DNA of 64,000 nt from the sequence record OQ420740.1; one strand, written 5' to 3'. Of the stretch, positions 2,951-57,866 are shown in pieces. The notes under the pieces were generated by a model. The model was not told where the DNA came from. It ran no database searches and saw only the letters and a program-made list of their open reading frames with translations. The position numbers and the translations under genes were made by a program. This DNA is from Escherichia phage B9-1. Position 1 is the first letter of the stretch, and every line of letters begins with the position of its first letter.

Positions 2951-3994
2951 ATGACTAAACCAGTTATCCCTCTTGATATTTGGGCCAATCAGGATGTTGT
3001 GCTTGAAAATACGGGAGAATTGAATAAGTCCCAACCAAAAAAAGAAGAGAGATTGAAAGGTTGGGATATGACACAAAGAGTGGCATGTGAAGTTGTTAAC
3101 TTTGAACTTCACATGCTTTCTGCGTGGTTAAAGCATTTAACAGAAGATGTTGTCCCAGGATGGGATAATAGATTCTTAAGGGTCACTAATAATCTGGCAG
3201 ACGTTCCAGACAAAGCTGCTGCACGTCAAGTTCTCAATGTATACTCGCCTGAAGAAATGGATGACCTTTATGTTGACAAGACTGGAGACACAATGATCCA
3301 GACTCAAACTTTAGGTCTTCAAAGAATTGAGTTTGCATCTGCGTCAACAGACAATGCGGCGATATACACCACCATAACTCCAGACAAGACGATGATGGAT
3401 TTCTGGATTATGGACAACATCGGTGGCGCTGACGGCACAGACCTTGATGATCCTTCTCACCAAATAGACGGTTTCCGTTGGAGATTTCAACCTTCTGGTG
3501 GGCAGCCTGTGTTTTCGGCTATGAAGCTCAATGCTATAACTGCCAACCGTGCAAGACTGGCTATCCAAGGAAATCTTGAATGCAATGATGCAAAAAGCTC
3601 CTCTGCAAATGCCAATGCGGTAACGATACCAAGAGCCACTGTTAATGGACAACAATCCTGCGGCAGCGCTCAAATAGGTGGAAGAGTAGATTGTAACGAT
3701 AAAACCGCCAGGGGTCAATATGCAACAGTTGGTGGGAGAAACGTGGTCCGCAGGGTAAATGGTAGTAGCGCAGATAGCAGTGGTAACCTTACTATCCCTA
3801 TGCCTAGTAGGGGTGTTGAAGATGTAAGGATAGCAAACCGTTTCAGAACCACCTACAGAGAATCAAGAGTATACCCTGGGCATGTAATGTGCTCCGGCAA
3901 TTACGCCTATAAACACCCGTATCAAGGTGACTATTGGACTGGTGCTATTCAAAAATTTGTAAACGGTCAATGGATCACGATATCTTATGCTTAA
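2951..3994 (+). CDS. tail fibre protein, paralog B
   Basis: 347 aa from ATG 2951 (SD GGAG 6 nt upstream; track ORF begins at GTG 2948); conserved N-terminus and C-terminus (QKFVNGQWITISYA) shared with 895..1935, divergent central region. Confidence 0.6.
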   Translation: MTKPVIPLDIWANQDVVLENTGELNKSQPKKEERLKGWDMTQRVACEVVNFELHMLSAWLKHLTEDVVPGWDNRFLRVTNNLADVPDKAAARQVLNVYSPEEMDDLYVDKTGDTMIQTQTLGLQRIEFASASTDNAAIYTTITPDKTMMDFWIMDNIGGADGTDLDDPSHQIDGFRWRFQPSGGQPVFSAMKLNAITANRARLAIQGNLECNDAKSSSANANAVTIPRATVNGQQSCGSAQIGGRVDCNDKTARGQYATVGGRNVVRRVNGSSADSSGNLTIPMPSRGVEDVRIANRFRTTYRESRVYPGHVMCSGNYAYKHPYQGDYWTGAIQKFVNGQWITISYA

Positions 3995-6073: not shown

Positions 6074-9000
6074 ATGCTTCCAATCCCTTTGCTAAAACTT
6101 GGTCGTCATTTCCTCGATAAGAGGGGTGGAGTTAAGGAACTTGCTGTTCTGTCATACCCAATAGACAACAGTGACGGTACAAGCACTACAGTAGCTTATG
6201 TAAATAGCTTAGCTATACTTTTTGACGACGGTCAGCTTAATATTACTGGCTATAACAAGTTCGGGGAGTGTCGCACTGGGGATCGTAACCCTATAAACTA
6301 CCCGAGCGAGACGGCCTGGAATGTCGATCATGTGTGGAGAGCAGACCGTGCGTTTGTGATCCGGACTTTTGATAACCAGTTTTTCTACATCGGCTGCACT
6401 GCAGGTCTTATCGGATCCACTGCGGCAGGTGGTAACGATGTTTGCGTAAACGAGTGGACACCTCTTCCGGAACAGATTGTTCAAGGATTGCACCTTGACA
6501 CCCACCCAGAGCGCCTTATCGAGGTAATGGGTGGTATTAACAACACTGTTTGGGTTATGGCAGAGGCTGAGGGTGACGGCATTTTACACCTGTACGGGTC
6601 TGGTAACAACACCTACGGATCTTTACATGTAGATAAGAACCAGCATGCAACTCCTGTAAAGATTGGTGAAACATCAGAAAATCCTGAAACAGGCCCTTGG
6701 AAAAACCCAAGTATCAACTGCGAGGTGCATGACAACTCTGTTATTTTCGGTGGTCCTAGAGGTTTCTGGATTGCTGGGTACGACTTTCTGAGAAACAATA
6801 GTAGAAACACTCTCGTTTGGCCTCCTGCTCAGATTACCCGTGACGATTTGAGAGGAATTCCTGCAGATGAGGAGTGGAAAGGGTTCATGTGCGGTCCGAA
6901 TGGGGCAGTGGTTGCAACACAAAGAATGCACAGACCTGATGACCAACAACTTGTTAACGTATTTTATGGTCAAAACGTTTGGGGAGATGATACCTGGCGT
7001 GCTTTGAATATAACCTACACCCATGAGGTGATAATGGCTCGTGGGTACGGCACAAGTGGCATTTTCTTCAACAATGGTACTAAGCAGTATCGTGGCTTCT
7101 CTCGAAACCTGTGCAACGATATTGGCGCACAATCTGCAAACAATAATCCCCGTGCCGATTTTGTTCATTACCAGGCCCTTGCTACGGCCAAATATGTTGA
7201 GCAACGTTTGCCAGTTAGCTGGACAGAGAGTGTTTATTTCCAAGGCATCCATAGAGAAGGTTTTTTAGGGACCTTTACTGTTGTTAATGGTAAACTTTGG
7301 TGGTCAGGTATCCCAAGGGGAAGTTTTGCAGGCTCTAATAACCTGTTTGGCGGTAGACTTAATAGTCAAGGGTTCACAGAGGTTCCTGAGAATTGGTATA
7401 AAAATGTCCCAGTAGATAGTTGGGGTGTTGATGATATTTTTGACGTTAACGGTGTTAGCAGCGTTAGCAATATTTACATTGGTGACACGGTCAAGATGAA
7501 ATTGAAGCCTCAGCCAGAGGGGGCTACGTTCATTATTGACAAGATTGAGCTGGTAAATGCTGCGGGTACGGTTGTTACAGATGCAAATTACCAATTCTCC
7601 ACCAACTGGAACCACGGCGGGGCCAACGAAGTTGTTGTTACTCAGTATAACAGGAATGTTAACAGACGTGGCCTGTACTCTGTAAAAATAACCTATCATG
7701 ACAAGCATGGCACAGGAAGAACTCACACGACAAGGACTTTGAACTGGAACACCATAGTTCCTGCGTATCCTTCTGACGGTAAGTGGCATACCGTTGGTAG
7801 AAACAAGCAGTTCCATGTTAACGATACTGTATACTTCGGGCTGAATGGGACTCAGCCTGCGGTAGAAGGAGATACATCGTATATGGTCCGACTCCACAGA
7901 ATGGATGCTGGATCAGTCACCTATGATGTTACCCAAGAGATTTATGATCAGAGACGAAATACCTACAACAACTTAGTGCAGACACAGGCCGTATGGGAGT
8001 TCAACCCTAACGGCAGAGGCGGTAAAATGTTGCAGGTTAACGAGCAAAACGGAACGTCGTTGACTGTCCACGAACACCCAGACCCTTGGCCTGATCCTGG
8101 AAAACCTCACCCAGGTGCTCGTACACTGAAAATTGTCAGCCATGATGCAGGATATTTCGGAATACGCTGGGAAGCCACAGTAAGATATGCAGACGGGACA
8201 ACAAACAACATAGGGATTACACTTGGAGGCACCAGTGAAGATAGCTCTCTGAAAATTGCCTACACCCCTAGGGGCATCTCTATTGATAATATGGATGTTG
8301 TTCGCAATGGTTACGGCGATGTGAATGTCAAAGTTACTCTTGGCGAACATCTTGGTGGGGAAAGGATCATCATGTATGCCTTTGATCATGACCCGCGAAC
8401 CAATGGAACTTATGCAAATCAGGCATGGAGTTACCTGATAAATGCACCTGAGCCGAATACTAAAGAGTTCTACTACGGTATGAAGCGAGATGTATGCAAG
8501 AAAACAGGAACACATGACTGGATTGCTATCTGCGTTAAAGATGAGCGCACAGCTTGGGATGAGCCTGTTAATAGATGGTTCATAGGTATTCCTACCAGAA
8601 GCGATAAGTATATCGCAGAATACATTGTGTGCATGGGCGGTACCAACCTAAATATGTGTTGGAACGAAGATGCAAACAAATACTCTGATTATGACTATAT
8701 GAGAGATTACTCTTGTAATCAGTGGTTTAACCAATCAACAGGGTATCCTCCACGACAGGCGAGAGTAAACCCTGCAATCTTTACAGATACGCAGGTTTTC
8801 TTGACAAAACAGGCCAACGAGGTTCAGACCTTCAAGAACAAATACGACCCTAACAAGTGGTTTTATAACTGTTATGGCGCATTTTTCTGGGGTCCTGGCG
8901 AACTGCCTAATGGAGGATCTTGCTTCGAGGCTGCAACTTACGCCAGTGACAGGTTCATGGGGCAGGTTAAGAAGTACAAGATAATCCCAGGGCCTGAAAC

Positions 9001-44874: not shown

Positions 44875-45032
44875 GATGTGCTGCTCATTCTATCGTTCGC
44901 ACCGTACTTTAAGTTACTATTCCAGATTTTCCGCACATACTCTCACCCTTCTACCAGGACTTTCCCAGCTTACCTTTGACCCTTTATAACAATAAACCCA
45001 TTATTCTCAGTAGGTTTTGATACATCTCTCTC

Positions 45033-45198
45033 AGTACTCGATCTGTTTTTCGTTTCAAAGATTGAATTTTCTGAAAATTTTTCTCGATAAATTTCTTAGT
45101 ACTCGATCTGTTTTTCGTTTTCTGAATCAGATTTTCTGGAAATCGTTCCGGAGCTCGACCTGAAATTTTTGGGGACGAAATCGATTTTTCGTTTTCGG
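45033..45198. repeat. iteron-like direct repeats
   Basis: 23-bp AGTACTCGATCTGTTTTTCGTTT at ~45033-45055 and ~45098-45120, with degenerate copies GCTCGACCTGAAATTTTTGG (~45151) and AATCGATTTTTCGTTTTCGG (~45179). Confidence 0.55.
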
Positions 45199-45326
45199 AA
45201 ATGGATTTTTAAAATTTGTATATGGAAATACTTAAGGAGGTATTATTTTATATAGAATTGTCACGGTAGGTAATTAGCATGCTAACTAAATTTATGAAAT
45301 GCGAAAAGTTCTCATTTAGAATTTTG

Positions 45327-45943: not shown

Positions 45944-46141
45944 ATGAACGCCTACGGAATTAAAGTACGTCGCAACACTCGCCAGGCCGTCACCGATCAA
46001 ATGATTTGCCAGGTGGACGTAACCATCAACAACGGGCAAGGCCTTTATAAATTCCGTCGCGGTCAGAGCTACACCCGGCAACAGCTTAATCGTTGCGCCC
46101 TGACAAAAGGCCAGATCAACCACTGGTTTAATAAAAAATAA
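45944..46141 (+). CDS. hypothetical small basic protein
   Basis: 65 aa; leader AGAGAGGATAAAAATCATG; antisense track ORF 45923..46123 rejected. Confidence 0.5.
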   Translation: MNAYGIKVRRNTRQAVTDQMICQVDVTINNGQGLYKFRRGQSYTRQQLNRCALTKGQINHWFNKK

Positions 46142-46144
46142 GTA

Positions 46145-46173
46145 TTGACATACAGTCTGACACCAAATACACT
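46145..46173 (+). promoter_or_regulatory. sigma70-like promoter
   Basis: TTGACA (46145-46150), 17-bp spacer, TACACT, ~30 nt upstream of ATG 46206. Confidence 0.5.
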
Positions 46174-46205
46174 AAAAGCACAAAAGACACTAAGAGGATA
46201 AAATC

Positions 46206-46604
46206 ATGAAAACCACTACCTTTAATTTTGATAATGCGGACTTTTCTTTTTCTGATGTCAAGAACTGCCGCCGTGATCGTGGATTTTACAAGGCTTATAA
46301 TCTGGTGGGCCTGGACGATGACAATAATTTGCACGAAGTAGCTGAGATCCGGTATTATGCCGCCGCCAGCGGGAACACTCAATACTGTGTTTTTTGGATT
46401 CACGACAACAAGAACAATAAGTACGGTTATACTGGCGGGAAGGCGAGCGGTCACGGTTACGATAAAGCTAATGCAGCACTTGAGAGCGCATTAAATGCTA
46501 TGGGGATCACTGCCAACGGCTGGATCTATGAAGAAGAGTTTTTGTCGGCACTTGCTAACCACCTGGGCTATAAAAAGCACATTGTAACATGCGCCCACGA
46601 ATAA
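46206..46604 (+). CDS. hypothetical protein
   Basis: 132 aa; leader TAAGAGGATAAAATCATG. Confidence 0.55.
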   Translation: MKTTTFNFDNADFSFSDVKNCRRDRGFYKAYNLVGLDDDNNLHEVAEIRYYAAASGNTQYCVFWIHDNKNNKYGYTGGKASGHGYDKANAALESALNAMGITANGWIYEEEFLSALANHLGYKKHIVTCAHE

Positions 46605-46610
46605 AAATTG

Positions 46611-46638
46611 TTGACACGCTGCAAAATTCAAGTAAACT
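46611..46638 (+). promoter_or_regulatory. sigma70-like promoter
   Basis: TTGACA (46611-46616), 16-bp spacer, TAAACT. Confidence 0.5.
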
Positions 46639-46648
46639 AATCACAAAA

Positions 46649-46667
46649 GGCGGGAATGTTTCCCGCC
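46649..46667 (+). other. 5' leader stem-loop
   Basis: GGCGGGAATGTTTCCCGCC, 7-bp stem, just downstream of the predicted transcription start and ~20 nt before ATG 46687; near-identical to the hairpin at 49189. Confidence 0.45.
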
Positions 46668-46686
46668 AACACAAAGGAAAAAGATC

Positions 46687-47091
46687 ATGAATAAGAACGT
46701 ACGCCGCATCATGAATGAACTGGCAAACGATGAAAAAATTATTGACATGCATTTGATCAACATTTGCCGCCGTTGTGTAACATATAACAACCGCGCCGCA
46801 AAAGCGCGTGAGATGAACGCAAAAGGCACCTTAAAGCCCTTCCAGGTGGTGGTAAAGGCCATTAAAGATGTAACTAATACGGCAAATCAGGTACAGGGGA
46901 ACACCAACGAAAGTACCAATATTGATCCGGCTTACATCATGAAACGGATCCGGACCTGCAAGAACAAAGAGCAGGTGTATAACGTCATAGACTGGTTGGA
47001 TTCCATGGGCGACGTGGTGTACAATAGGTTTTCTGCAGCTATCGAGATCCAGCTTGACAGGTTGGACGGTAAAGTACTGAAAACTTACTAA
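46687..47091 (+). CDS. hypothetical protein
   Basis: 134 aa; leader AAAGGAAAAAGATCATG. Confidence 0.55.
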   Translation: MNKNVRRIMNELANDEKIIDMHLINICRRCVTYNNRAAKAREMNAKGTLKPFQVVVKAIKDVTNTANQVQGNTNESTNIDPAYIMKRIRTCKNKEQVYNVIDWLDSMGDVVYNRFSAAIEIQLDRLDGKVLKTY

Positions 47092-47140
47092 GTTTATTTT
47101 TAGATGGCCTTGACTACAGGGCCATCAATAAAGTAAACTA
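47092..47140 (+). repeat. 46-bp repeated intergenic element, copy 1 (palindrome over a -35-like hexamer)
   Basis: GTTTATTTTTAGATGGCCTTGACTACAGGGCCATCAATAAAGTAAACT; 7-bp inverted repeat GATGGCC/GGCCATC encloses TTGACT. Confidence 0.5.
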
Positions 47141-47170
47141 ATCTCAGTTAAGCGAAAAAGGGGCTTTAAG

Positions 47171-47290
47171 ATGAGCACTACACGCCAATACACAAAGGTA
47201 ACTATTATCGCCTGCGTTGTCGGTTACATCCTGGCGCAAATGTTAATGAGTAGCGCTAACAGTTTTGCAAAATTTTTCTTAAATTTTTAA
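47171..47290 (+). CDS. putative hydrophobic micro-protein (39 aa)
   Basis: ATG after SD AAAGGGGC; MSTTRQYTKVTIIACVVGYILAQMLMSSANSFAKFFLNF; below track cutoff. Confidence 0.3.
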   Translation: MSTTRQYTKVTIIACVVGYILAQMLMSSANSFAKFFLNF

Positions 47291-47318
47291 TTGACAAGCT
47301 AACCCAAATCAGTATACT
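47291..47318 (+). promoter_or_regulatory. sigma70-like promoter
   Basis: TTGACA (47291-47296), 16-bp spacer, TATACT, then an imperfect hairpin CGGGAAAACTTCCCAG and SD AAAGGAGA before ATG 47370. Confidence 0.5.
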
Positions 47319-47369
47319 TAAACACGTAAACGGGAAAACTTCCCAGAACACACAAAAGGAGAAAACACC

Positions 47370-47711
47370 ATGACTACTATGACCGCCGCAGAAAAAGCTA
47401 TTCAGGTTGCCGCACTGAAAAAACAGATCGCAGACCTTGAGAACAAGATCGATAACTTTGAAATCGACGAGGACAAGTACGACGAAAACTATGATGAATG
47501 GTTAGACGAGGTCTACGGCGAAATCATGATCGGAAACATTTCTTTTCTTCCGTCGCGTATCCTCAAGGAGCTAGATCCTATCGCTTACCGCTGCGGATTT
47601 AGCGACTACATCGACAGCCTGGATATTGAGGACGATGAAGAGTACCAAGAATTGCAAACAGAGTTGGAAGAAGCAAAAGAAGAGCTTGCAGAACTGGAAG
47701 AAAACGAGTAA
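47370..47711 (+). CDS. hypothetical acidic coiled-coil protein
   Basis: 113 aa; Glu/Asp-rich with heptad-like spacing. Confidence 0.55.
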   Translation: MTTMTAAEKAIQVAALKKQIADLENKIDNFEIDEDKYDENYDEWLDEVYGEIMIGNISFLPSRILKELDPIAYRCGFSDYIDSLDIEDDEEYQELQTELEEAKEELAELEENE

Positions 47712-47760
47712 GTTTATTTTTAGATGGCCTTGACTCCAGGGCCATCAATAAAGTAAACTT
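47712..47760 (+). repeat. 46-bp repeated intergenic element, copy 2
   Basis: AGTTTATTTTTAGATGGCCTTGACTCCAGGGCCATCAATAAAGTAAACT, directly after the stop of 47370..47711. Confidence 0.5.
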
Positions 47761-47797
47761 TACACTGTTAACACTGAACTAATGAGGAGTTAAAACC

Positions 47798-48043
47798 ATG
47801 GCAGCACTAATCACCAAATACTATGCCCCTACCAACACCAAAAGCGCCCGGATCATGGTAAAAGGCTTCGGACGTAAAAAGGTTTACACCTGGGATTATT
47901 CCCTAGACATGGAAGACAACTACACCAACGCGATGACCGATTTTATTAACGAGCTGAATACGCGGATCTTAACAAATTATAAAATTACCGACATTGCTTA
48001 TATAGGTGAAGGCGGGATCTGTTTTGTAGGCATTGTGAAATAG
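47798..48043 (+). CDS. hypothetical small protein
   Basis: 81 aa, SD GAGGAG. Confidence 0.5.
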   Translation: MAALITKYYAPTNTKSARIMVKGFGRKKVYTWDYSLDMEDNYTNAMTDFINELNTRILTNYKITDIAYIGEGGICFVGIVK

Positions 48044-48095
48044 TTATTTTTTCGGTGGTCCTGGTTGCAGGGCCATCTATAAAAATAATTTACTA
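48044..48095 (+). repeat. diverged copy of the 46-bp intergenic element
   Basis: TTATTTTTTCGGTGGTCCTGGTTGCAGGGCCATCTATAAAAATAATTTACT, same T-run / inverted repeat / -10-like layout. Confidence 0.4.
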
Positions 48096-48118
48096 ACACC
48101 ATGAAAGGAGAAAGTAAC

Positions 48119-48472
48119 ATGATCAGCGGTGCAAGTTTTATTATTGGCGCTATTGCTACGGCTTTAATTGTAAACAAGATCCAATCCAAAAACGAAAAAG
48201 AGAGCAACGCCCTTGCAGAATATCCATTTTGGACATTTAACGATAACGAAGATTATATTATAAAGTATAAAAATAAAGAAGGTGACCAAGTAACACCGCG
48301 ACCGATCCCGGCTTACAAGATGCAGGAAACACTATACCGCCTGGAGGCGGGGGGCGCAAAAATTGTGGACTTTTGGGGATACGATCACACAGATCAGGAA
48401 GTTATAAAGCGCCGTATCCGGGCTATTCAGGCCAATATTGAAGTTAGCAAGGGGGGAATATATGAAGATTAA
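48119..48472 (+). CDS. hypothetical membrane-anchored protein
   Basis: ATG 48119 with SD AAAGGAGA (track start 48101 lacks an SD); N-terminal hydrophobic segment ISGASFIIGAIATALIV. Confidence 0.5.
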   Translation: MISGASFIIGAIATALIVNKIQSKNEKESNALAEYPFWTFNDNEDYIIKYKNKEGDQVTPRPIPAYKMQETLYRLEAGGAKIVDFWGYDHTDQEVIKRRIRAIQANIEVSKGGIYED

Positions 48473-48659
48473 TTTTGAGAAGATTGTAAAGCGATCTCAT
48501 GATTCCGAAGAGCTGCCGGAACGCCGCCAGCGTAACAATAAACTGAATAAGCCAAAAAGATTTGGAAAGATCTGGCGAAATCATTATGATCGTAAATTGC
48601 CTGGCCTACTTTTGGAACGTGAACGACAGGCAGAACGATACCGCCATAAAGACAAATAA
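48462..48659 (+). CDS. hypothetical small basic protein
   Basis: ATG 48462 with SD AAGGGGGG; overlaps the upstream gene by 11 nt. Confidence 0.4.
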   Translation: MKINFEKIVKRSHDSEELPERRQRNNKLNKPKRFGKIWRNHYDRKLPGLLLERERQAERYRHKDK

Positions 48660-48667
48660 CAACCAAC

Positions 48668-48696
48668 GCCCCGCCATTGTGCGGGGCTTTTTATTT
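48668..48696 (+). terminator. rho-independent terminator
   Basis: GCCCCGCCATTGTGCGGGGC (7-bp stem) followed by TTTTTATTT. Confidence 0.7.
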
Positions 48697-48840
48697 CTAT
48701 CCTACGAATAGCGCCCCTGGTTGGCCCTATAAGCGCCAAAAAGGCCCCCACCTATGCAATCCCCTTTCTTAACCTGAAAACATCGCCCAGGGCCGTTTTA
48801 TGGCGTTAAAAATATTATTGACAGTGATTTTATTTAAAGC

Positions 48841-48868
48841 TTGACATCTTAAACAGGTTAGCTATACT
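48841..48868 (+). promoter_or_regulatory. sigma70-like promoter
   Basis: TTGACA (48841-48846), 16-bp spacer, TATACT; a second TTGACA lies ~20 bp upstream. Confidence 0.5.
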
Positions 48869-48900
48869 AACCACATCAAAGAGAGAAAGGAGTAAACGCC

Positions 48901-49161
48901 ATGCGTAAATTAAAAAATTTTGATAAGGTTGATGTTGTCCTGAATAATTTTTACTACTGCAACAACAAGGCCATTTGGTGGCGTGATAGTTCCACCGATA
49001 AAGTCAAGGCGCGCTTTCTCCAGGGGCACTGGCAAGGCCGCCCAGTGATTAAAATCATGGGGCAATTGGTAGCGTTTAAAAATTGCCGCCGTGTTGATGA
49101 CGTTGAAGAGATCTTGAACATTTTACGCCACAATAATTTAAAAAATAGTGTTGACAAGTAA
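48901..49161 (+). CDS. hypothetical small protein
   Basis: 86 aa, SD AAAGGAG. Confidence 0.5.
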   Translation: MRKLKNFDKVDVVLNNFYYCNNKAIWWRDSSTDKVKARFLQGHWQGRPVIKIMGQLVAFKNCRRVDDVEEILNILRHNNLKNSVDK

Positions 49162-49178
49162 ATCTCGATAAGTATAAT
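49151..49178 (+). promoter_or_regulatory. sigma70-like promoter
   Basis: TTGACA (49151-49156), 16-bp spacer, exact TATAAT (49173-49178); overlaps the end of the upstream gene. Confidence 0.55.
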
Positions 49179-49188
49179 TAAACACACA

Positions 49189-49207
49189 GGCGGGAAAACT
49201 TCCCGCC
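49189..49207 (+). other. 5' leader stem-loop
   Basis: GGCGGGAAAACTTCCCGCC, perfect 7-bp stem, ~10 nt after the -10 and ~30 nt before ATG 49236. Confidence 0.45.
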
Positions 49208-49235
49208 ACTAACAAAGAAAACAGGAGAAAATATC

Positions 49236-49859
49236 ATGACCACCGTTAACATTACCACAGGTTACAATTTATCTTTCGACGTGCTGACCGACGAACAAAA
49301 AGAAAAAGCCGTTGAAATGGTCCGCGAAAGAGAAGAACACAGCGGGGATAACTTTTTTGCAGAAAGTGTAATTGAATACTATAAAGAATATGTTTTTCCA
49401 GAGTATGGCCTTGAAGATACCGAAGTACATTGGTCCGGCTTTTGGTGCCAGGGTGACGGCGCGTCAATCAGTGCTGAAAACGTTGATTTAGAAAAATTCT
49501 TGCGTAAAGTCAAATCTCTGACTAAATTCCGCTCAATTCGTAACTTGTTCGGCACAATGCACGATGGCGAGCTATCTGCAAGTGTTGAGCGTGATCCATA
49601 TAGCCGCCATAGTCACGAAAACACTGTAAGCGGGTACATTGATACTACATGGCTAGACCTGACAGCCAAGCAAGAAAGTAAGGTTGAAGAGCTGGAAGAG
49701 CTGATCACCGAGACGGTACGGGAGCTATCCCGCAAGGTTTATGTAGACCTGGAGGAGGCCTATCTTGAACAGTTTACTACCGAAAACCTGATCGGCCTTA
49801 TTGAAGCCAATGATTGGCGGTTTAATGTGGATGAATATGGGGAGATGAGTTTTTCATAA
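49236..49859 (+). CDS. hypothetical protein
   Basis: 207 aa; SD ACAGGAGA; no family recognised by eye. Confidence 0.55.
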   Translation: MTTVNITTGYNLSFDVLTDEQKEKAVEMVREREEHSGDNFFAESVIEYYKEYVFPEYGLEDTEVHWSGFWCQGDGASISAENVDLEKFLRKVKSLTKFRSIRNLFGTMHDGELSASVERDPYSRHSHENTVSGYIDTTWLDLTAKQESKVEELEELITETVRELSRKVYVDLEEAYLEQFTTENLIGLIEANDWRFNVDEYGEMSFS

Positions 49860-49867
49860 ATAAAGTG

Positions 49868-49895
49868 TTGCAATAATCTAAAAACCTGCTATATT
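49868..49895 (+). promoter_or_regulatory. sigma70-like promoter
   Basis: TTGCAA, 16-bp spacer, TATATT, followed by hairpin GGGGCGAGATGACTTGCCCC and leader AAAGAGGATAACATCATG. Confidence 0.45.
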
Positions 49896-49948
49896 AAAAC
49901 TCAAGGGGCGAGATGACTTGCCCCACACAAAACAAAGAGGATAACATC

Positions 49949-50329
49949 ATGAAAAACACCACCAAGGCTATTGACACCGTTATGTTTAACCTGGTTACAT
50001 TCCGTGAAGATATGAAAGATCTTCCACGTGAAACAGTGTGCGACCATATCGAAAACTATCGCAAACTTATTAAAGAATTGCCATTAAAACGAGATCAGTA
50101 CGCGGCTAACGCTATGCTTAACGCCATGATCAAAAAGATGATCCAGTGTGATTTAACTCTGGCCTATGATTATGCAGGTGGTCGTTTTGCAGTATACAAT
50201 CAGCCCGTGCCTGGTATGAGCACCACCGAAGAATTGCACGCGCTCAATCTAAAACAAGACGTGTGGGATAATATGCCCCGCGTGGTGGTGTGGGCAGAAA
50301 GCGGAAAGATTTACGGCGATAATTTTTAA
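49949..50329 (+). CDS. hypothetical protein
   Basis: ATG 49949 with SD AAGAGGA (track start 49913 lies in the promoter/hairpin). Confidence 0.5.
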   Translation: MKNTTKAIDTVMFNLVTFREDMKDLPRETVCDHIENYRKLIKELPLKRDQYAANAMLNAMIKKMIQCDLTLAYDYAGGRFAVYNQPVPGMSTTEELHALNLKQDVWDNMPRVVVWAESGKIYGDNF

Positions 50330-50395
50330 TCAGGTAACAGGCGGCGGCATATTTGCCGCCCTATTGTTAAGAAGAATTGTAAGAGGGTACATAGA

Positions 50396-50767
50396 ATGGA
50401 ATTTATTATTTTGGCTATATTAGTTGCCTTGTTTAACGCCTGGATCGCTGGCAAGATGGGCAGATCTGCCTTTTTATGGTTTATTATATCTATCTTCCTG
50501 GGAGTGGTTGCAACTATTGTATTGGTTATCCTTGCAATTGTTGATAAGGGGAATAATAGAAAGGGTAAAGTATTTTCAGACCTGTACGACGCTCAAACAT
50601 TTGTCAACGCCTACTACAGCGATCTTCCAGTCTCCCTACGTTGCAGCCTTGCACAACAGGTTTTCGATGAAGCTAAAACCAGAGATCACGCCCATGAGAT
50701 ATGTTTAACTGAGGCGGATCGCCTATTTGAGAGGAATAGAAAATATGTGGACCAACCGTTTAAATAA
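50396..50767 (+). CDS. hypothetical membrane protein
   Basis: 123 aa; two hydrophobic helices (FIILAILVALFNAWIA, FLWFIISIFLGVVATIVLVILAIV). Confidence 0.5.
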   Translation: MEFIILAILVALFNAWIAGKMGRSAFLWFIISIFLGVVATIVLVILAIVDKGNNRKGKVFSDLYDAQTFVNAYYSDLPVSLRCSLAQQVFDEAKTRDHAHEICLTEADRLFERNRKYVDQPFK

Positions 50768-50966
50768 TGCCACGTTAATTAATCCCTTTAGTGAAGATTT
50801 GAAGCCAGCCGCCTGGCGTGATGGATTCAATAACGAAAGCTTTATTTTCAGGCCTGATCTTAAGGAATTTTATAACAATGGATCGAACAACGACAGAGAT
50901 AATTTTTCTCGTAATGTGCGTGGCGATAATACTCCTGGGGGCCATTGCAAACCACGTCACTGCTAA
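50745..50966 (+). CDS. hypothetical small protein (uncertain)
   Basis: ATG 50745 with SD GAGAGGA; conflicts with an alternative-frame hydrophobic ORF (MDRTTTEIIFLVMCVAIILLGAI, ending 51003); the real gene is not resolved. Confidence 0.3.
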   Translation: MWTNRLNNATLINPFSEDLKPAAWRDGFNNESFIFRPDLKEFYNNGSNNDRDNFSRNVRGDNTPGGHCKPRHC

Positions 50967-50986
50967 CAGGAGGGAAGGGGGAGACG

Positions 50987-51106
50987 ATGACACCCAAGGA
51001 TAAGCCCCGCACCGATAAGGCGCGCCGTGTTATGGTATGGCTTGAGATCATCGCCCTTGAAATATTGTTAGGCGTAGGGATGTATTTTATCGCTGTAAGT
51101 AACTGA
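50987..51106 (+). CDS. putative hydrophobic micro-protein (39 aa)
   Basis: ATG after SD GGGGGAG; MTPKDKPRTDKARRVMVWLEIIALEILLGVGMYFIAVSN; followed by a terminator. Confidence 0.3.
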   Translation: MTPKDKPRTDKARRVMVWLEIIALEILLGVGMYFIAVSN

Positions 51107-51110
51107 TAAC

Positions 51111-51150
51111 GGCCCCCGATCCCTGGGGGCCTAACTTTTTAAATTTTTTC
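51111..51150 (+). terminator. rho-independent terminator
   Basis: GGCCCCCGATCCCTGGGGGCC hairpin followed by TAACTTTTTAAATTTTTT. Confidence 0.65.
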
Positions 51151-51160
51151 TCCCTGGGTG

Positions 51161-51189
51161 TTGCAATCCGATCCAGAATATGGATAATA
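51161..51189 (+). promoter_or_regulatory. sigma70-like promoter
   Basis: TTGCAA, 16-17-bp spacer, GATAAT, then hairpin GGGGAGCAATCCCC and leader AAAAAGGAGAAACAAAATG; shares AATATGGATAATAA with the promoter at 51975. Confidence 0.45.
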
Positions 51190-51243
51190 ACAATCAACGG
51201 GGAGCAATCCCCACCAACACAAAGACTAAAAAGGAGAAACAAA

Positions 51244-51444
51244 ATGAGCAACAATATCCGCGTTATTAACTTCAAAAAAGAAGAAAAAATTGCCGTGCTG
51301 ATTGACGGTCAAGAAATCTTTAAAGGCGATTATGAAGATCATCAGGTAGCGATCAGTATTACCCGCGTGATTGGTTACCATAATTTTTACCCCCAAGGCG
51401 CTGAGGCAGCAGTAAAACGAATTAAAGAGATTGTAGGCCTGTAA
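51244..51444 (+). CDS. hypothetical small protein
   Basis: 66 aa, SD AAGGAGA. Confidence 0.5.
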   Translation: MSNNIRVINFKKEEKIAVLIDGQEIFKGDYEDHQVAISITRVIGYHNFYPQGAEAAVKRIKEIVGL

Positions 51445-51491
51445 AATTTATTTTTAGATGGCCTTGACTCCAGGGCCATCAATAAAGTAAA
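51445..51491 (+). repeat. 46-bp repeated intergenic element, copy 3
   Basis: AATTTATTTTTAGATGGCCTTGACTCCAGGGCCATCAATAAAGTAAA, identical core to 47712..47760. Confidence 0.5.
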
Positions 51492-51528
51492 TTTAAACCC
51501 TGTTAAAATAATCAGTGCAAAAGGAGTA

Positions 51529-51834
51529 ATGATCATGTTTATCCAGGCTAATAATCTTTATTTCTTTGATGGTCAGATCGTAGACGGCGTGGAGGTGGAA
51601 ATCACCGGGTGCCCTGGCGGTCAGGTTATGACTTTTCGGAATAATGCCTTTGATGATTCTCATATCGTTATGAGAATGGAAGTTAGTAAGCTGGACGATA
51701 AGAAAACACTCATTGATTATTCCGTGAAAGATCATCCAGACTACCACATGATCTATGGCGATTTGTGCATTGTTGACCGTGACAAGGTGGGCGGCATTGT
51801 GATCGCTATTGTGAACGATGTTTTCTCTAAATAA
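51529..51834 (+). CDS. hypothetical protein
   Basis: 101 aa, SD AAAGGAG (second ATG at 51535 also possible). Confidence 0.5.
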   Translation: MIMFIQANNLYFFDGQIVDGVEVEITGCPGGQVMTFRNNAFDDSHIVMRMEVSKLDDKKTLIDYSVKDHPDYHMIYGDLCIVDRDKVGGIVIAIVNDVFSK

Positions 51835-51974
51835 TTCCGGCAAATGATGCAAAATAAGGCCCCTGGCAGGGCCTGCAGCGATATAATCACATAAAGGCTA
51901 TGCGGTTGCATGGCCTTTATTATTTTAGCGTTACAGCTGCCCCCAAGGCGCTTAAAAAATTTTTAAAGAAGTAC

Positions 51975-52002
51975 TTGCATCAAGTCCTACAATATGGATA
52001 AT
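51975..52002 (+). promoter_or_regulatory. sigma70-like promoter
   Basis: TTGCAT, 16-bp spacer, GATAAT, ~60 nt upstream of ATG 52064. Confidence 0.45.
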
Positions 52003-54848: not shown

Positions 54849-54914
54849 TACAACAAGCTACATGGTCAGGGGCAATAAAGCCCCTTGATCACATAAAAAT
54901 TATGCTATCCTTGG

Positions 54915-54943
54915 TTGACAGGGATCGGCAGTTTTGCTATATT
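54915..54943 (+). promoter_or_regulatory. sigma70-like promoter
   Basis: TTGACA, 17-bp spacer, TATATT, ~50 nt upstream of ATG 54993. Confidence 0.5.
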
Positions 54944-54992
54944 CTTTTTTGAAGGGAAGTTGTAAGAAAATTAACTAAGAGGTAAAAACACC

Positions 54993-55412
54993 ATGAACAT
55001 TAAATCTGATAATCCGGCATATAGCTTTGATAACGCTTTTTGTCACGGTCCGGCGGCGAAAGGATTCGAAATCGATGGTAAACTAGTTATTGTTAATGTT
55101 GACGGGGAAGAGGTTGCAGTATATCCGGTGGCAGACGTTAAAAGCCGTCTACAATGCCGCATGGATGTTACCGCCTACCAGCTTGATCCGGTCCGGGTAG
55201 TTGCCCTAGTCCTGGAAGAAGAAATTAAAGCAATGCACCACAGCAACAAGTTTATTGGTGACGCTCAAGATAATATGCAGGTATGCCGCCATAAAGTTAA
55301 TGAAGTACTTAAAGAGTACGGCTATAAGGATTTAATGATCAAGCGTGATGAAAAATTCCGTTACCGTAACGACCTGGCAAATCGGATTTTTGAAATATAC
55401 GAATCATTATAA
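54993..55412 (+). CDS. hypothetical protein
   Basis: 139 aa, SD TAAGAGG; last gene of the rightward array. Confidence 0.55.
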   Translation: MNIKSDNPAYSFDNAFCHGPAAKGFEIDGKLVIVNVDGEEVAVYPVADVKSRLQCRMDVTAYQLDPVRVVALVLEEEIKAMHHSNKFIGDAQDNMQVCRHKVNEVLKEYGYKDLMIKRDEKFRYRNDLANRIFEIYESL

Positions 55413-55430
55413 TTTCTTAACTGAATTATC

Positions 55431-55458
55431 AAGGGGCTTAAAGGCCCCTTTCTTTTTG
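55431..55458 (+). terminator. rho-independent terminator
   Basis: AGGGGCTTAAAGGCCCCT hairpin followed by TTCTTTTTG, 20 nt after the stop at 55412. Confidence 0.7.
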
Positions 55459-56074: not shown

Positions 56075-56094
56075 ATGCAAACGAATGGCATGGC
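56075..56094. repeat. 20-bp direct repeat, copy 1
   Basis: ATGCAAACGAATGGCATGGC, identical copy 213 bp downstream. Confidence 0.6.
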
Positions 56095-56213
56095 GCGACG
56101 GAGTCGCGACATAATATAAAAGCAGTAACAATCACCCCCGTGATAGTTTTTCTGCAATCTATTACTCAGATCATAGTTGCCTTGTATTTAGTTAATCATG
56201 ACATAACAAGCAA

Positions 56214-56241
56214 GGCAACTATAGATCTTCTAATAGTTGCC
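56214..56241. repeat. 28-bp palindrome
   Basis: GGCAACTAT AGATCTTCTA ATAGTTGCC: perfect 9-bp inverted arms; the same arm sequence (AGGCAACTAT / ATAGTTGCCT) also occurs at ~56066 and ~56172. Confidence 0.55.
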
Positions 56242-56287
56242 CTGCTTTTATATTATGTCATAGATTGTTAGCTTGTTAATTGTTTTC

Positions 56288-56307
56288 ATGCAAACGAATG
56301 GCATGGC
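56288..56307. repeat. 20-bp direct repeat, copy 2
   Basis: ATGCAAACGAATGGCATGGC. Confidence 0.6.
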
Positions 56308-56333
56308 TTATCATCTCTGTGTAAACTGTTCAG

Positions 56334-56359
56334 GCGTAAACAGTCTATGCGTAAACAGT
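56334..56359. repeat. tandem 11-bp iterons (GCGTAAACAGT x2; third copy at 56653-56663)
   Basis: GCGTAAACAGT at 56334-56344 and 56349-56359, preceded by inverted partial TGTAAACTGTT; third copy at 56653. Confidence 0.55.
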
Positions 56360-57866
56360 GAGATATGGAATAGTAACAGCCGTTATTGTGTCATATTGTG
56401 TGACATTGTGTCCGGTGTCTGGTGTCCAGTGTGTCAGACAAGTTTTTCTCCTCTTTGTCAAGTGCTGCATGAAAAATTTACAAACTGGTATGGTAGCATT
56501 TTTGCGGCCCTGTTTACATTCAGGAATGTATGTATAATCCTTGTTGTGTGGGCGTTTAGACGTCTGGACGGTCAGAAGTCTGCAGGTCAATATCTAATCT
56601 ATTGGTTGCTAACTATATCCCACACAAATAGTAAGAAATATAATTGTTATATGCGTAAACAGTAACCCATGTTATCAATCCCTGCATGTATCGCCAGTGG
56701 TGCGCATAATGGGTATTATGTTAAATTGCCCGTAATGATAACCATTCTCACAATGATAGGTATTCTCATTCACTCCCACAAGATAGATTGCAAATGTTGT
56801 GCCACTGTGTGAACGGCCTGGCCTATTAATTTGCCTCACTGCCTCGATATTTGAGAATTATTATAAAAATGAGAAGTATTCCCATTCCGTCCGCCTGGCA
56901 GCACTCCTGTAGGACAGGCACAAAATCGGGGTATAACTGGACCTGTTCAGATATTTCTGGCTGACTCTTCAGGCCTGTGTGGGAAAAGCCAACCTCTCCG
57001 GCGGCGGGGAGGGGTCAATTAAAAAATTTACGTGGTGTATGAAGCGCTCTTCAGGTAAGGCAGGTATTATGGGATGAAACCCTCTTCAGATGATGATATT
57101 TGTGGGTGTGATATTTGCTGGAAAGCCAGATATGACGGGACTCCCGGCAGGGGTGGGGTAGTACAGACAGGGAAAATGTGGGAATGTGATGGAGTAAATT
57201 GATCAGGTAGGTAGGATATGGAATATGTTACAAGTATGTTAAATATGGAGGTAGGATATTTGTAAGATTTGTGTGTAAAATCAAATACTTAAGTGGTGTT
57301 GTGGTATTTTCTATAAATAATTCAAGTTTAATAGGTGATATTTGTCTCCATCCACTTTGTGTGGTAAACAGATTCTAATTGAATTGGTTTACAAGTGTAT
57401 ATAAAGTATACAAATTAAAGATATAAGAAACCCCCCTCCCCCTTCGGCTACCATTCACCTTTTCCTCTGACTGGTACTTAAACACTTATTCAGACTCTTC
57501 AGGTTATCACCCATATACTATATGGCAGTGACTGGTGTCCTCCGGCCCCTCTTTCGTCACCCGTCCGCTTCGCCATGCTAATGCCATAGCCAAATGTTCG
57601 GTTGTTCACCCTGTTCACTCAGGTGTATCTCCATACCCCTTCAAACCGAAGAGAACAGAAAACCCGAATTACTCGGTAAAAGAAAAGAGAAGAACTTAAT
57701 TTTATCAAGATAGGCAAGAATGTCAAGGGATGACTGCTCACTAAACAAGCAAACAGTCATGTGTGGTGGGTAAGTAACTGTGTTGGTAGGAAATTTAGTT
57801 GAAAGATGTTATAGGTGCCTCCAGAACCTTAGCTGGGCAGCTAAACCTGCAAAGCAGACTTGTGTG

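Follow-up and report, generated by a model that had tools for sequence, protein, structure and literature searches.

A short element that recurs four times between early genes of Escherichia phage B9-1 (sequence record OQ420740.1) is best read as a 49-nucleotide (nt) two-tier RNA hairpin built on old promoter sequence. It was studied in a window of 64 kb, i.e., the whole stretch of 64,000 nt that was analysed, and the changes that separate its variants make it very probable that the element is real and under selection as a hairpin of the sense-strand RNA. Its likeliest role, to which we would give close to an even chance, would be RNase III-type processing or stabilisation of the message between early cistrons. 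Phages of the rV5 group are common candidates for therapy and biocontrol, and what is known of their early transcription comes from predicted promoters and terminators only; the four hairpins are unannotated in most records (among them those of rV5 and EdH4) and annotated as promoters in at least one.

Copies and genomic setting

Positions 46000–52000 of the window represent the early region of an rV5-like phage (Vequintavirus) with small open reading frames (ORFs) on the + strand, and are 93–96% identical to more than 100 Vequintavirus genomes, including rV5, FV3, EdH4, and S127 BCL3. For rV5, transcription by the host RNA polymerase from sigma70-type promoters was proposed (PMC3606486). A 24-nt core (GATGGCCTTGACTMCAGGGCCATC) was found exactly at 47103–47126, 47723–47746, and 51457–51480 on the + strand, the same three sites that are spanned by a 63-nt direct-repeat family, and dinucleotide shuffles gave 0 matches to it. 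In addition, a covariance model (CM) was built from 25 variants of the element (from the window, rV5, EdH4, Gotham, KKE7M, and metagenomic contigs) and run on the window, where it returned exactly four + strand matches and no others: the near-identical copies 1, 2, and 3 (47085–47144, 47705–47764, and 51439–51498; 81–84 bits) and the diverged copy 4 (48036–48095; 70 bits). The three near-identical copies and the diverged one that the initial annotation had placed after stop codons were confirmed by these results; the beginning of every copy coincides with the stop of the preceding ORF (TAA 47089–47091, TAA 47709–47711, and TAA 51442–51444 for copies 1–3, TAG 48041–48043 for copy 4). The hairpins and the parts of copy 1 are as follows:

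47091–47139, + strand: copy 1 hairpin, after ORF 46687–47091 (fold −24.6 kcal/mol, z −6.3; CM 82.8 bits)
47091–47100 paired with 47130–47139, + strand: lower stem of copy 1 (RNA fold)
47101–47102 (UA) opposite 47127–47129 (AAU), + strand: internal loop of copy 1 (RNA fold)
47103–47112 paired with 47117–47126, + strand: upper stem of copy 1, with loop ACUA at 47113–47116 (RNA fold)
47711–47759, + strand: copy 2 hairpin, loop ACUC, after ORF 47370–47711 (fold −26.6 kcal/mol, z −8.2; CM 83.9 bits)
51445–51493, + strand: copy 3 hairpin, after ORF 51244–51444 (fold −23.6 kcal/mol, z −6.5; CM 80.6 bits)
48042–48090, + strand: copy 4 hairpin (diverged), after ORF 47798–48043 (fold −22.3 kcal/mol; CM 69.6 bits)

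By BLAST, three near-identical copies were recovered in ~120 phage genomes, mostly at three places per genome, while 5,426 E. coli genomes gave no match to the element, which is therefore not a host repeat. No credible Rfam family was found in a gathering search of the whole window or in a permissive search of 46500–52000, and degenerate patterns run against IMG/VR and the JGI metagenomes recovered rV5-like contigs and chance G/C hairpins only, with no distant family members. The proteins of 81 and 134 amino acids (aa) encoded next to the element have distant homologues in unrelated phages or occur only in Vequintavirus, so that no syntenic distant hairpin was available for comparison. Two RNAfold sliding-window scans of the window gave output that was too noisy for use.

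The first transcription unit consists of the promoter P46611, the 134-aa gene, copy 1, and the 39-aa gene, and the second of the promoter P47291, the 113-aa gene, copy 2, the 81-aa gene (thus flanked by copies 2 and 4), copy 4, two more genes, and the terminator at 48668. The hairpin copies lie inside operons, with no terminator close by, and are therefore internal to polycistronic units with promoters and terminators of their own, a setting like that of the RNase III sites in T7.

A two-tier fold kept on the sense strand

All four copies were folded by RNAfold into a 10-base-pair (bp) A/U lower stem, a 2×3 internal loop (UA/AAU; UC/UAU in copy 4), a 10-bp G/C upper stem, and a tetraloop, with energies of −22.3 to −26.6 kcal/mol (z −5.5 to −8.2), and RNAalifold independently gave the same consensus structure on the 25 distinct variants. 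Copy 2 has the geometry of copy 1 and a lower stem that is extendable to 47708–47763, copy 3 has A-U in place of G-C at the base of the lower stem, and the diverged copy 4 keeps the 10 / 2×3 / 10 / 4 geometry with two G.U pairs in its upper stem (GGUGGUCCUG/CAGGGCCAUC) and a GUUG loop. The antisense strand folds 7–11 kcal/mol more weakly (−11 to −17 kcal/mol; for copy 4, −11.4 vs. −22.3 kcal/mol on the + strand), owing to the G.U pairs in the stems.

The element had been described in the initial annotation as a T-run followed by a 7-bp palindrome (GATGGCC/GGCCATC) around a −35-like TTGACT. The palindrome is indeed perfect in copies 1–3, but the paired upper stem is 10 bp long since U.G, U-A, and G-C pairs extend it, and it does not simply enclose TTGACT, as TTG lies within the stem and the loop is only ACUN. 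The T-run does precede the palindrome, yet it is itself half of a stem: GUUUAUUUUU pairs with the A-rich AAAGUAAAC(U) 3' of the palindrome, and the T-run together with the downstream AATAAAGTAAAC makes up the second 10-bp helix. The view that this is no canonical terminator held: on neither strand does a U-tract come after the stem, whose 3' neighbour is AAUAAAGUAAAC on the + strand and UAAAAAUAAAC on the − strand, and the element is absent from the terminator scan list.

Across the 25 variants, 98.8% of the cells are paired, compared with 36–56% when the partners were slid. Two-sided changes occur at four lower-stem pairs (G-C/A-U, U-A/C-G, U-A/A-U, and A-U/U-A), and in the comparison of copy 4 with copies 1–3 a lone A in the T-run and a lone U in the A-run move together. 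The variable upper-stem pairs changed on one side only, each time to G.U (4/4), and all one-sided differences between the arms (5/5) are of the G.U type, i.e., pairing is kept on the + strand only; if changes were unconstrained, five of five would be expected in ~1 in 250 cases, an estimate that is our own and not the result of a tool. When orthologous copies from 8–11 genomes were compared, variable columns made up 10/161 in the stems, 9/16 in the loop, and 89/383 in the flanks (Fisher p = 7e-7), which means that the loop is hypervariable, with positions 3–4 free to vary, and that the stems are ~4× less variable than the flanks. Both diverged paralogue types retain the 2×3 internal loop at a distance of 10 bp from the tetraloop, while in Gotham the upper stem of copy 1 was destroyed by a 5-nt deletion. 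Compensatory and sense-only G.U changes, a hypervariable loop, and near-invariant stems point to a structure of the sense-strand RNA and not to a DNA operator.

A smaller hairpin at 50335–50369, just past the stop codon at 50327–50329, is also two-tiered (6-bp lower stem, 2×3 internal loop, 7-bp G/C upper stem, and tetraloop), with a sequence unrelated to the element.

Processing by RNase III as the likeliest role

In the mechanism that we propose, each copy forms a sense-strand hairpin in read-through early transcripts between two cistrons. Its 3' half (spacer and −10) derives from a sigma70 early promoter of the phage and its 5' half (T-run and GATGGCCUUG) is the inverted complement of the 3' half, while selection keeps the two-tier fold, i.e., a 10-bp A/U lower stem running from the stop codon, a 2×3 loop, a 10-bp G/C stem, and a free tetraloop. 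Host RNase III would bind this helix of ~22 positions and cut at the internal loop, as at the early sites of phage T7, thereby parting the cistrons, with a protective 3' hairpin left on the upstream mRNA and a new 5' end on the downstream one. The cleavage and its effect on mRNA stability are what we infer, while the analysis directly shows the promoter homology, the recombination events, and a fold that is conserved and strand-specific. At the DNA level, the near-identical, promoter-homologous copies act as crossover points through which gene cassettes are added, deleted, and exported. The predicted cuts, placed by the register of T7 R1.1, are:

47127–47130, + strand: predicted RNase III cut on the 3' side of the internal loop, between AAU and A (between 47129 and 47130)
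47749/47750, 48080/48081, and 51483/51484, + strand: equivalent predicted cuts in copies 2, 4, and 3

For comparison, the T7 intergenic regions with R0.3, R0.5, R1, R1.1, and R1.3 were folded, at coordinates that we take to be those of the RNase III sites and that are consistent with gaps in the annotated T7 record. They form G/C upper stems of 9–13 bp, loops of 3–5 nt, and A/U lower stems, with asymmetric internal loops in R0.3 and R0.5 (and in the centroid fold of R1), and the lower stem of R0.5 takes in the stop codon of gene 0.4. The distance between tetraloop and cut is 11 bp plus 2 nt in T7 R1.1. In all copies of our element (4/4) 10 bp, i.e., one helical turn, separate the hairpin loop from the start of the internal loop, and the helix of 10 + 10 bp (lower stem up to 13) with its 2×3 loop amounts to 22–26 positions, about two turns; in vivo substrates of RNase III span 24 positions (PMC6212723).

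The target of RNase III has been defined as an 11-bp helix with a UA/UG distal box and a proximal box (pb) of G-C, A-U/U-A, A-U, and A-U/U-A, in which G/C at pb2 or pb4 act as antideterminants (Pertzev and Nicholson, PMC1540722). Mapped on T7 R1.1, these rules reproduced the published description, including the U.C pair at pb4. Copies 1–3 have the same distal box as T7 R1.1 (U-A and U.G at bp 2–3 from the loop), and their pb2 is A-U and pb4 an A.A mismatch, so no antideterminant is present. The resemblance thus extends to the geometry and to part of the sequence rules, with cleavage itself as a prediction. The conserved pairing, the sense-strand fold, and the anatomy shared with T7 sites all support the RNA processing site that had been among the first interpretations of the element. 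If these are RNase III sites, the early operons would be cut into monocistronic, differentially stable mRNAs as in T7, and the T7 strategy would extend to a large myovirus that depends wholly on the host RNA polymerase.

Several observations weigh against processing by RNase III. Among the expected sequence determinants, pb1 (U-A) and pb3 (G-C) are non-canonical (canonical G-C and A-U), and the distal box of copy 4 is UA/CG, the same as in T7 R0.5. The covariation comes from few independent events, mainly the split between copy 4 and copies 1–3 and a few changes within lineages. In copy 2, the two outermost 5' positions of the lower stem vary uncompensated while TAAACT is fixed, and the near-identity of copies 1–3, which includes the AC of the loop and the internal-loop bases, goes beyond what RNase III needs; it could stem from gene conversion, a sequence-specific binding protein, or promoter function. 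The literature on rV5-like phages yielded no transcript-end or cleavage mapping.

A sense-strand hairpin that acts independently of RNase III would draw on the same structural evidence, and we regard it as unlikely. It might block 3' exonucleases once distal decay or termination has occurred, signal a pause or attenuation, or be bound by an RNA-binding regulator of the phage. A sequence-specific protein would fit the high identity of copies 1–3, which takes in the AC of the loop and the bases of the internal loop, and the stem-loops of the promoter-early stem-loop (PeSL) cassettes of T4-type phages behaved as terminators in reporter assays (PMC2839356). However, the missing U-tract on both strands, the freely variable loop positions 3–4, and an internal loop conserved one turn from the tetraloop, which a simple exonuclease barrier would not need, all speak against these functions, and no candidate binding protein was identified.

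Resemblance to early promoters

Copies 1–3 share promoter-like hexamers, which are listed here together with an ordinary early promoter of the same region:

47110–47139, + strand: promoter-like TTGACT-18-TAAACT in copy 1 (promoter scan 9/12)
47730–47759 and 51464–51493: the same hexamers in copies 2 and 3
46611–46667, + strand: ordinary early promoter P46611, TTGACA-16-TAAACT, followed by the hairpin GGCGGGAAUGUUUCCCGCC in the 5' untranslated region (5'-UTR) (promoter scan)

The element aligns with P46611, with the PD114 promoter (TTGCAA-16-TAAACT plus a 5'-UTR hairpin), and with the phi1_175008 promoter, its own spacer being 2 nt longer. The −10 context of P46611 (AAGTAAACTAATC) has the same letters as the 3' end of copy 1, and AA(A/T)AAGTAAAYT recurs as the −10 context in all three promoters. 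Nothing in these promoters corresponds to the upstream T-run, which is the −10 region in inverted, complementary form, and the element therefore looks as if a promoter had gained a second, inverted copy. This resemblance is real but secondary to the fold, and copies 1–3 may retain weak promoter activity alongside it.

That the element is primarily a working sigma70 early promoter which drives the downstream gene, with a hairpin that is incidental or modulating, is a reading that we consider improbable, although a number of observations would fit it. Its hexamers align with the promoters of the group and its −10 context (AAAGTAAAYT) is common to P46611, PD114, and phi1_175008; TTGAC is invariant in copies 1–3, and TAAACT is fixed in copy 2 while its partners vary; in the Gotham GenBank record copies 2 and 3 are labelled as PhagePromoter predictions, and the P192 promoter of rV5 is annotated in the neighbourhood of the element. 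In phage KKE7M the element is joined in register to the −10 and the 5'-UTR hairpin of a resident promoter, and good promoters with the −10 in a hairpin loop occur in relatives (see below). Against this stands that the match is only 9/12 with a suboptimal 18-nt spacer, for which ~32 matches are expected by chance in the scanned 13-kb region, and that these sites are absent from the stringent promoter list of the rV5 authors. The hexamer spacing is not conserved among orthologues either: copy 1 of L031 (5-nt loop, TTGATA) has a 20-nt spacer and copy 3 of L040 a 19-nt spacer, both with the hairpin kept, and copy 1 of Gotham has a 13-nt spacing with the hairpin lost. In copy 4, TGGTTG replaces the −35 and the fold persists through compensatory and G.U changes. 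A promoter would also leave the joint changes of T-run and A-run and the pairing on the sense strand only unexplained, and the downstream genes already lie within operons. The −35-like TTGACT of the initial annotation is hence a likeness by descent, borne out by the alignment with early promoters, and not a conserved constraint, given its chance-level score and broken spacing.

The motif C(A/T)GTTAA lies 6–10 nt past copies 1–3 (47145–47151, 47766–47772, and 51501–51507), where transcription would start if TAAACT were a −10; it is invariant among the orthologues of copies 2 and 3 and variable at copy 1. Ordinary early promoters of the form TTGACA-16/17-TAnnnT occur at 46611–46667, 47291–47345, and 49151–49207 of the window and at 7585–7640 of L003, each followed after ~10 nt by a short G/C 5'-UTR hairpin (GGCGGGAA..UUCCCGCC or GGGAAAACUUCCC). 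The cassette of promoter plus leader hairpin is also recurrent in phi92-like phages.

Hairpins superimposed on promoters in relatives

In ChuuTotoro (Serratia phage, Vequintavirinae) and phi1_175008 (Klebsiella phage, Stephanstirmvirinae), several good sigma70-type promoters overlap long hairpins, with the −10 in the loop:

L045 3319–3371, 5139–5191, and 5614–5667, and L044 2527–2576: hairpins with the −10 in the loop (ChuuTotoro, phi1_175008)

In four of six such hairpins the sense strand folds 6.6–9.2 kcal/mol better, and one has a two-tier 6 / 2×2 / 10 shape. Overlap of hairpins with early promoters may therefore be more general in these phages. Such hairpins might form an unrecognised class of 'hairpin-wrapped promoters' common to Vequintavirinae and Stephanstirmvirinae, with an RNA hairpin superimposed on an early promoter (around the −35 in the element described here, around the −10 in ChuuTotoro and phi1_175008), a generalisation that we find conceivable but doubtful. 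If it were true, a single 50-nt module would end or process the upstream message and restart transcription for the next gene, and it would also supply the homology by which single-gene cassettes move between phage subfamilies.

The element at recombination joints

Comparative data show that the element serves as a recombination joint. The cassette between copies 1 and 2 (620 bp) is missing in some phages:

47140–47710, + strand: dispensable cassette between copies 1 and 2, absent in contig L017 and in phage ime; it contains the 39-aa ORF (47171–47290), a sigma70 promoter (47291–47318) with its 5'-UTR hairpin, and the 113-aa ORF (47370–47711)

Contig L017 has the upstream flank of copy 1, a single hybrid element, and the downstream flank of copy 2, and its gene order recurs in the cultured phage ime, where ime_113 comes right after ime_114. 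Furthermore, KKE7M, a Justusliebigvirus and thus a member of another subfamily, carries 468 bp that are 94.9% identical to 47290–47757 of the window, i.e., a promoter-gene-hairpin module was transferred into a phi92-like phage. Relative to its sibling PD114, 296 bp are replaced by KKE7M 7603–8038. The left crossover lies within the −35/spacer of the promoter, and at the right one GGGCCAUC is joined to AAUAAAGUAAAYU, the 3' arm of the element being matched to the −10 region of the resident PD114 promoter. These events are a concrete case of a promoter-gene-hairpin cassette crossing phage subfamilies, and they carry PeSL-type modular shuffling beyond T4-like phages.

The exact deletion in L017 and ime, the crossovers of the KKE7M transfer in promoter-like sequence, and the destroyed upper stem of Gotham copy 1 would also be expected if the element were a promoter duplicated as a palindrome that has no RNA or promoter function, is in decay, and survives only as homology for recombination. 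This is very unlikely, as stems that are ~4× less variable than the flanks next to a hypervariable loop, one-sided changes restricted to G.U, and compensatory pairs are unlike neutral decay, and copy 4 has diverged in sequence with its geometry unchanged.

Least probable of all is a DNA operator, in which a dimeric regulator of phage or host would bind GATGGCC/GGCCATC and occlude the −35: the 7-bp palindrome around TTGACT is perfect in copies 1–3, but the half-sites of copy 4 differ at 2/7 positions (GGTGGTC vs. GATGGCC) with RNA pairing preserved by G.U and with TGGTTG in place of the −35, the arms stand at variable spacing in related hairpins of other phages, the antisense strand folds poorly, and conservation runs on through the A/U lower stem, so the operator overlapping the −35 that was first suggested is not supported.

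Further cassette indel breakpoints relative to related genomes were observed at 48812–48823 (upstream of P48841), 51847–51848 (after ORF 51535–51834), and 54886–55432 (between two terminator-like hairpins), all in intergenic regulatory DNA.

Other features of the window and of related records

An ORF-poor stretch at 45017–45260, a candidate binding array or origin-like region, contains three direct repeats of 47–55 nt around CGATCTGTTTTTCGTTTT, 65 and 74 nt apart. Where the early region ends, the apparently non-coding stretch 56075–56412 holds an exact 20-nt repeat (ATGCAAACGAATGGCATGGC) at 56075 and 56288, a long hairpin at 56197–56260, and short tandem arrays with units of 15 and 10 nt at 56321–56412. 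Seventeen GenBank records (MG0656xx) named 'Campylobacter phage' (host C. jejuni) are ~94–95% identical to this E. coli rV5-like sequence, and their host labels look doubtful.

Comparison with known systems

Like intrinsic terminators, the element is a G/C-rich hairpin right after a stop codon; an intrinsic (Rho-independent) terminator was rejected, as the T-run lies upstream and is paired and neither strand has a U-tract 3' of the stem. DNA-hairpin promoters of the N4 type were also discarded, since the phage is without its own RNA polymerase.

Like the element, Correia and repetitive extragenic palindromic (REP)-type elements consist of short imperfect palindromes that recur in transcribed intergenic DNA and form folds in mRNA; Correia elements reportedly carry promoter boxes and are cut by RNase III. 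Unlike them, the element is present in four copies within one 4.4-kb stretch, with no target-site duplications and nothing that points to transposition; on account of this clustering and of the absent target duplications, mobility like that of miniature inverted-repeat transposable elements (MITEs) or REP elements was rejected.

The PeSL cassettes of T4-type phages (Arbiol et al. 2010, PMC2839356; Comeau et al. 2014, PMC4122927) likewise combine repeated intergenic sigma70-type promoter sequence with a G/C stem-loop among the small early ORFs of a hyperplastic region, and ORF cassettes are deleted, inserted, and exported by recombination between copies. They differ in that their stem-loop stands upstream of an AT-rich region and the promoter, whereas the two are superimposed here (−35 at the loop, −10 in the 3' lower arm), in that their stem-loops are reported terminators while the present hairpin has no U-tract, and in that they belong to another phage family; moreover, only four copies are present here.

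The early RNase III sites of T7 are close to the element in anatomy. In both cases the hairpins lie between cistrons of an early operon transcribed by the host RNA polymerase, inside polycistronic units, with a lower stem that starts at or beside the upstream stop codon, a G/C upper stem of 9–10 bp, a loop of 4–5 nt, an A/U lower stem, and an asymmetric internal loop whose 3' side is longer by one or more bases; promoters adjoin or overlap the sites in T7 as well (the C promoter at 3113, phi1.1A/B). In contrast, there is no sequence homology between them, the internal loop is 2×3 here and ~4×5 in T7, positions 1 and 3 of the proximal box are non-canonical, and our element is found in a large myovirus without its own RNA polymerase, where cleavage is predicted. 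The element belongs to known kinds, i.e., T7-type processing hairpins and PeSL-like cassettes, and is not a new mechanism.

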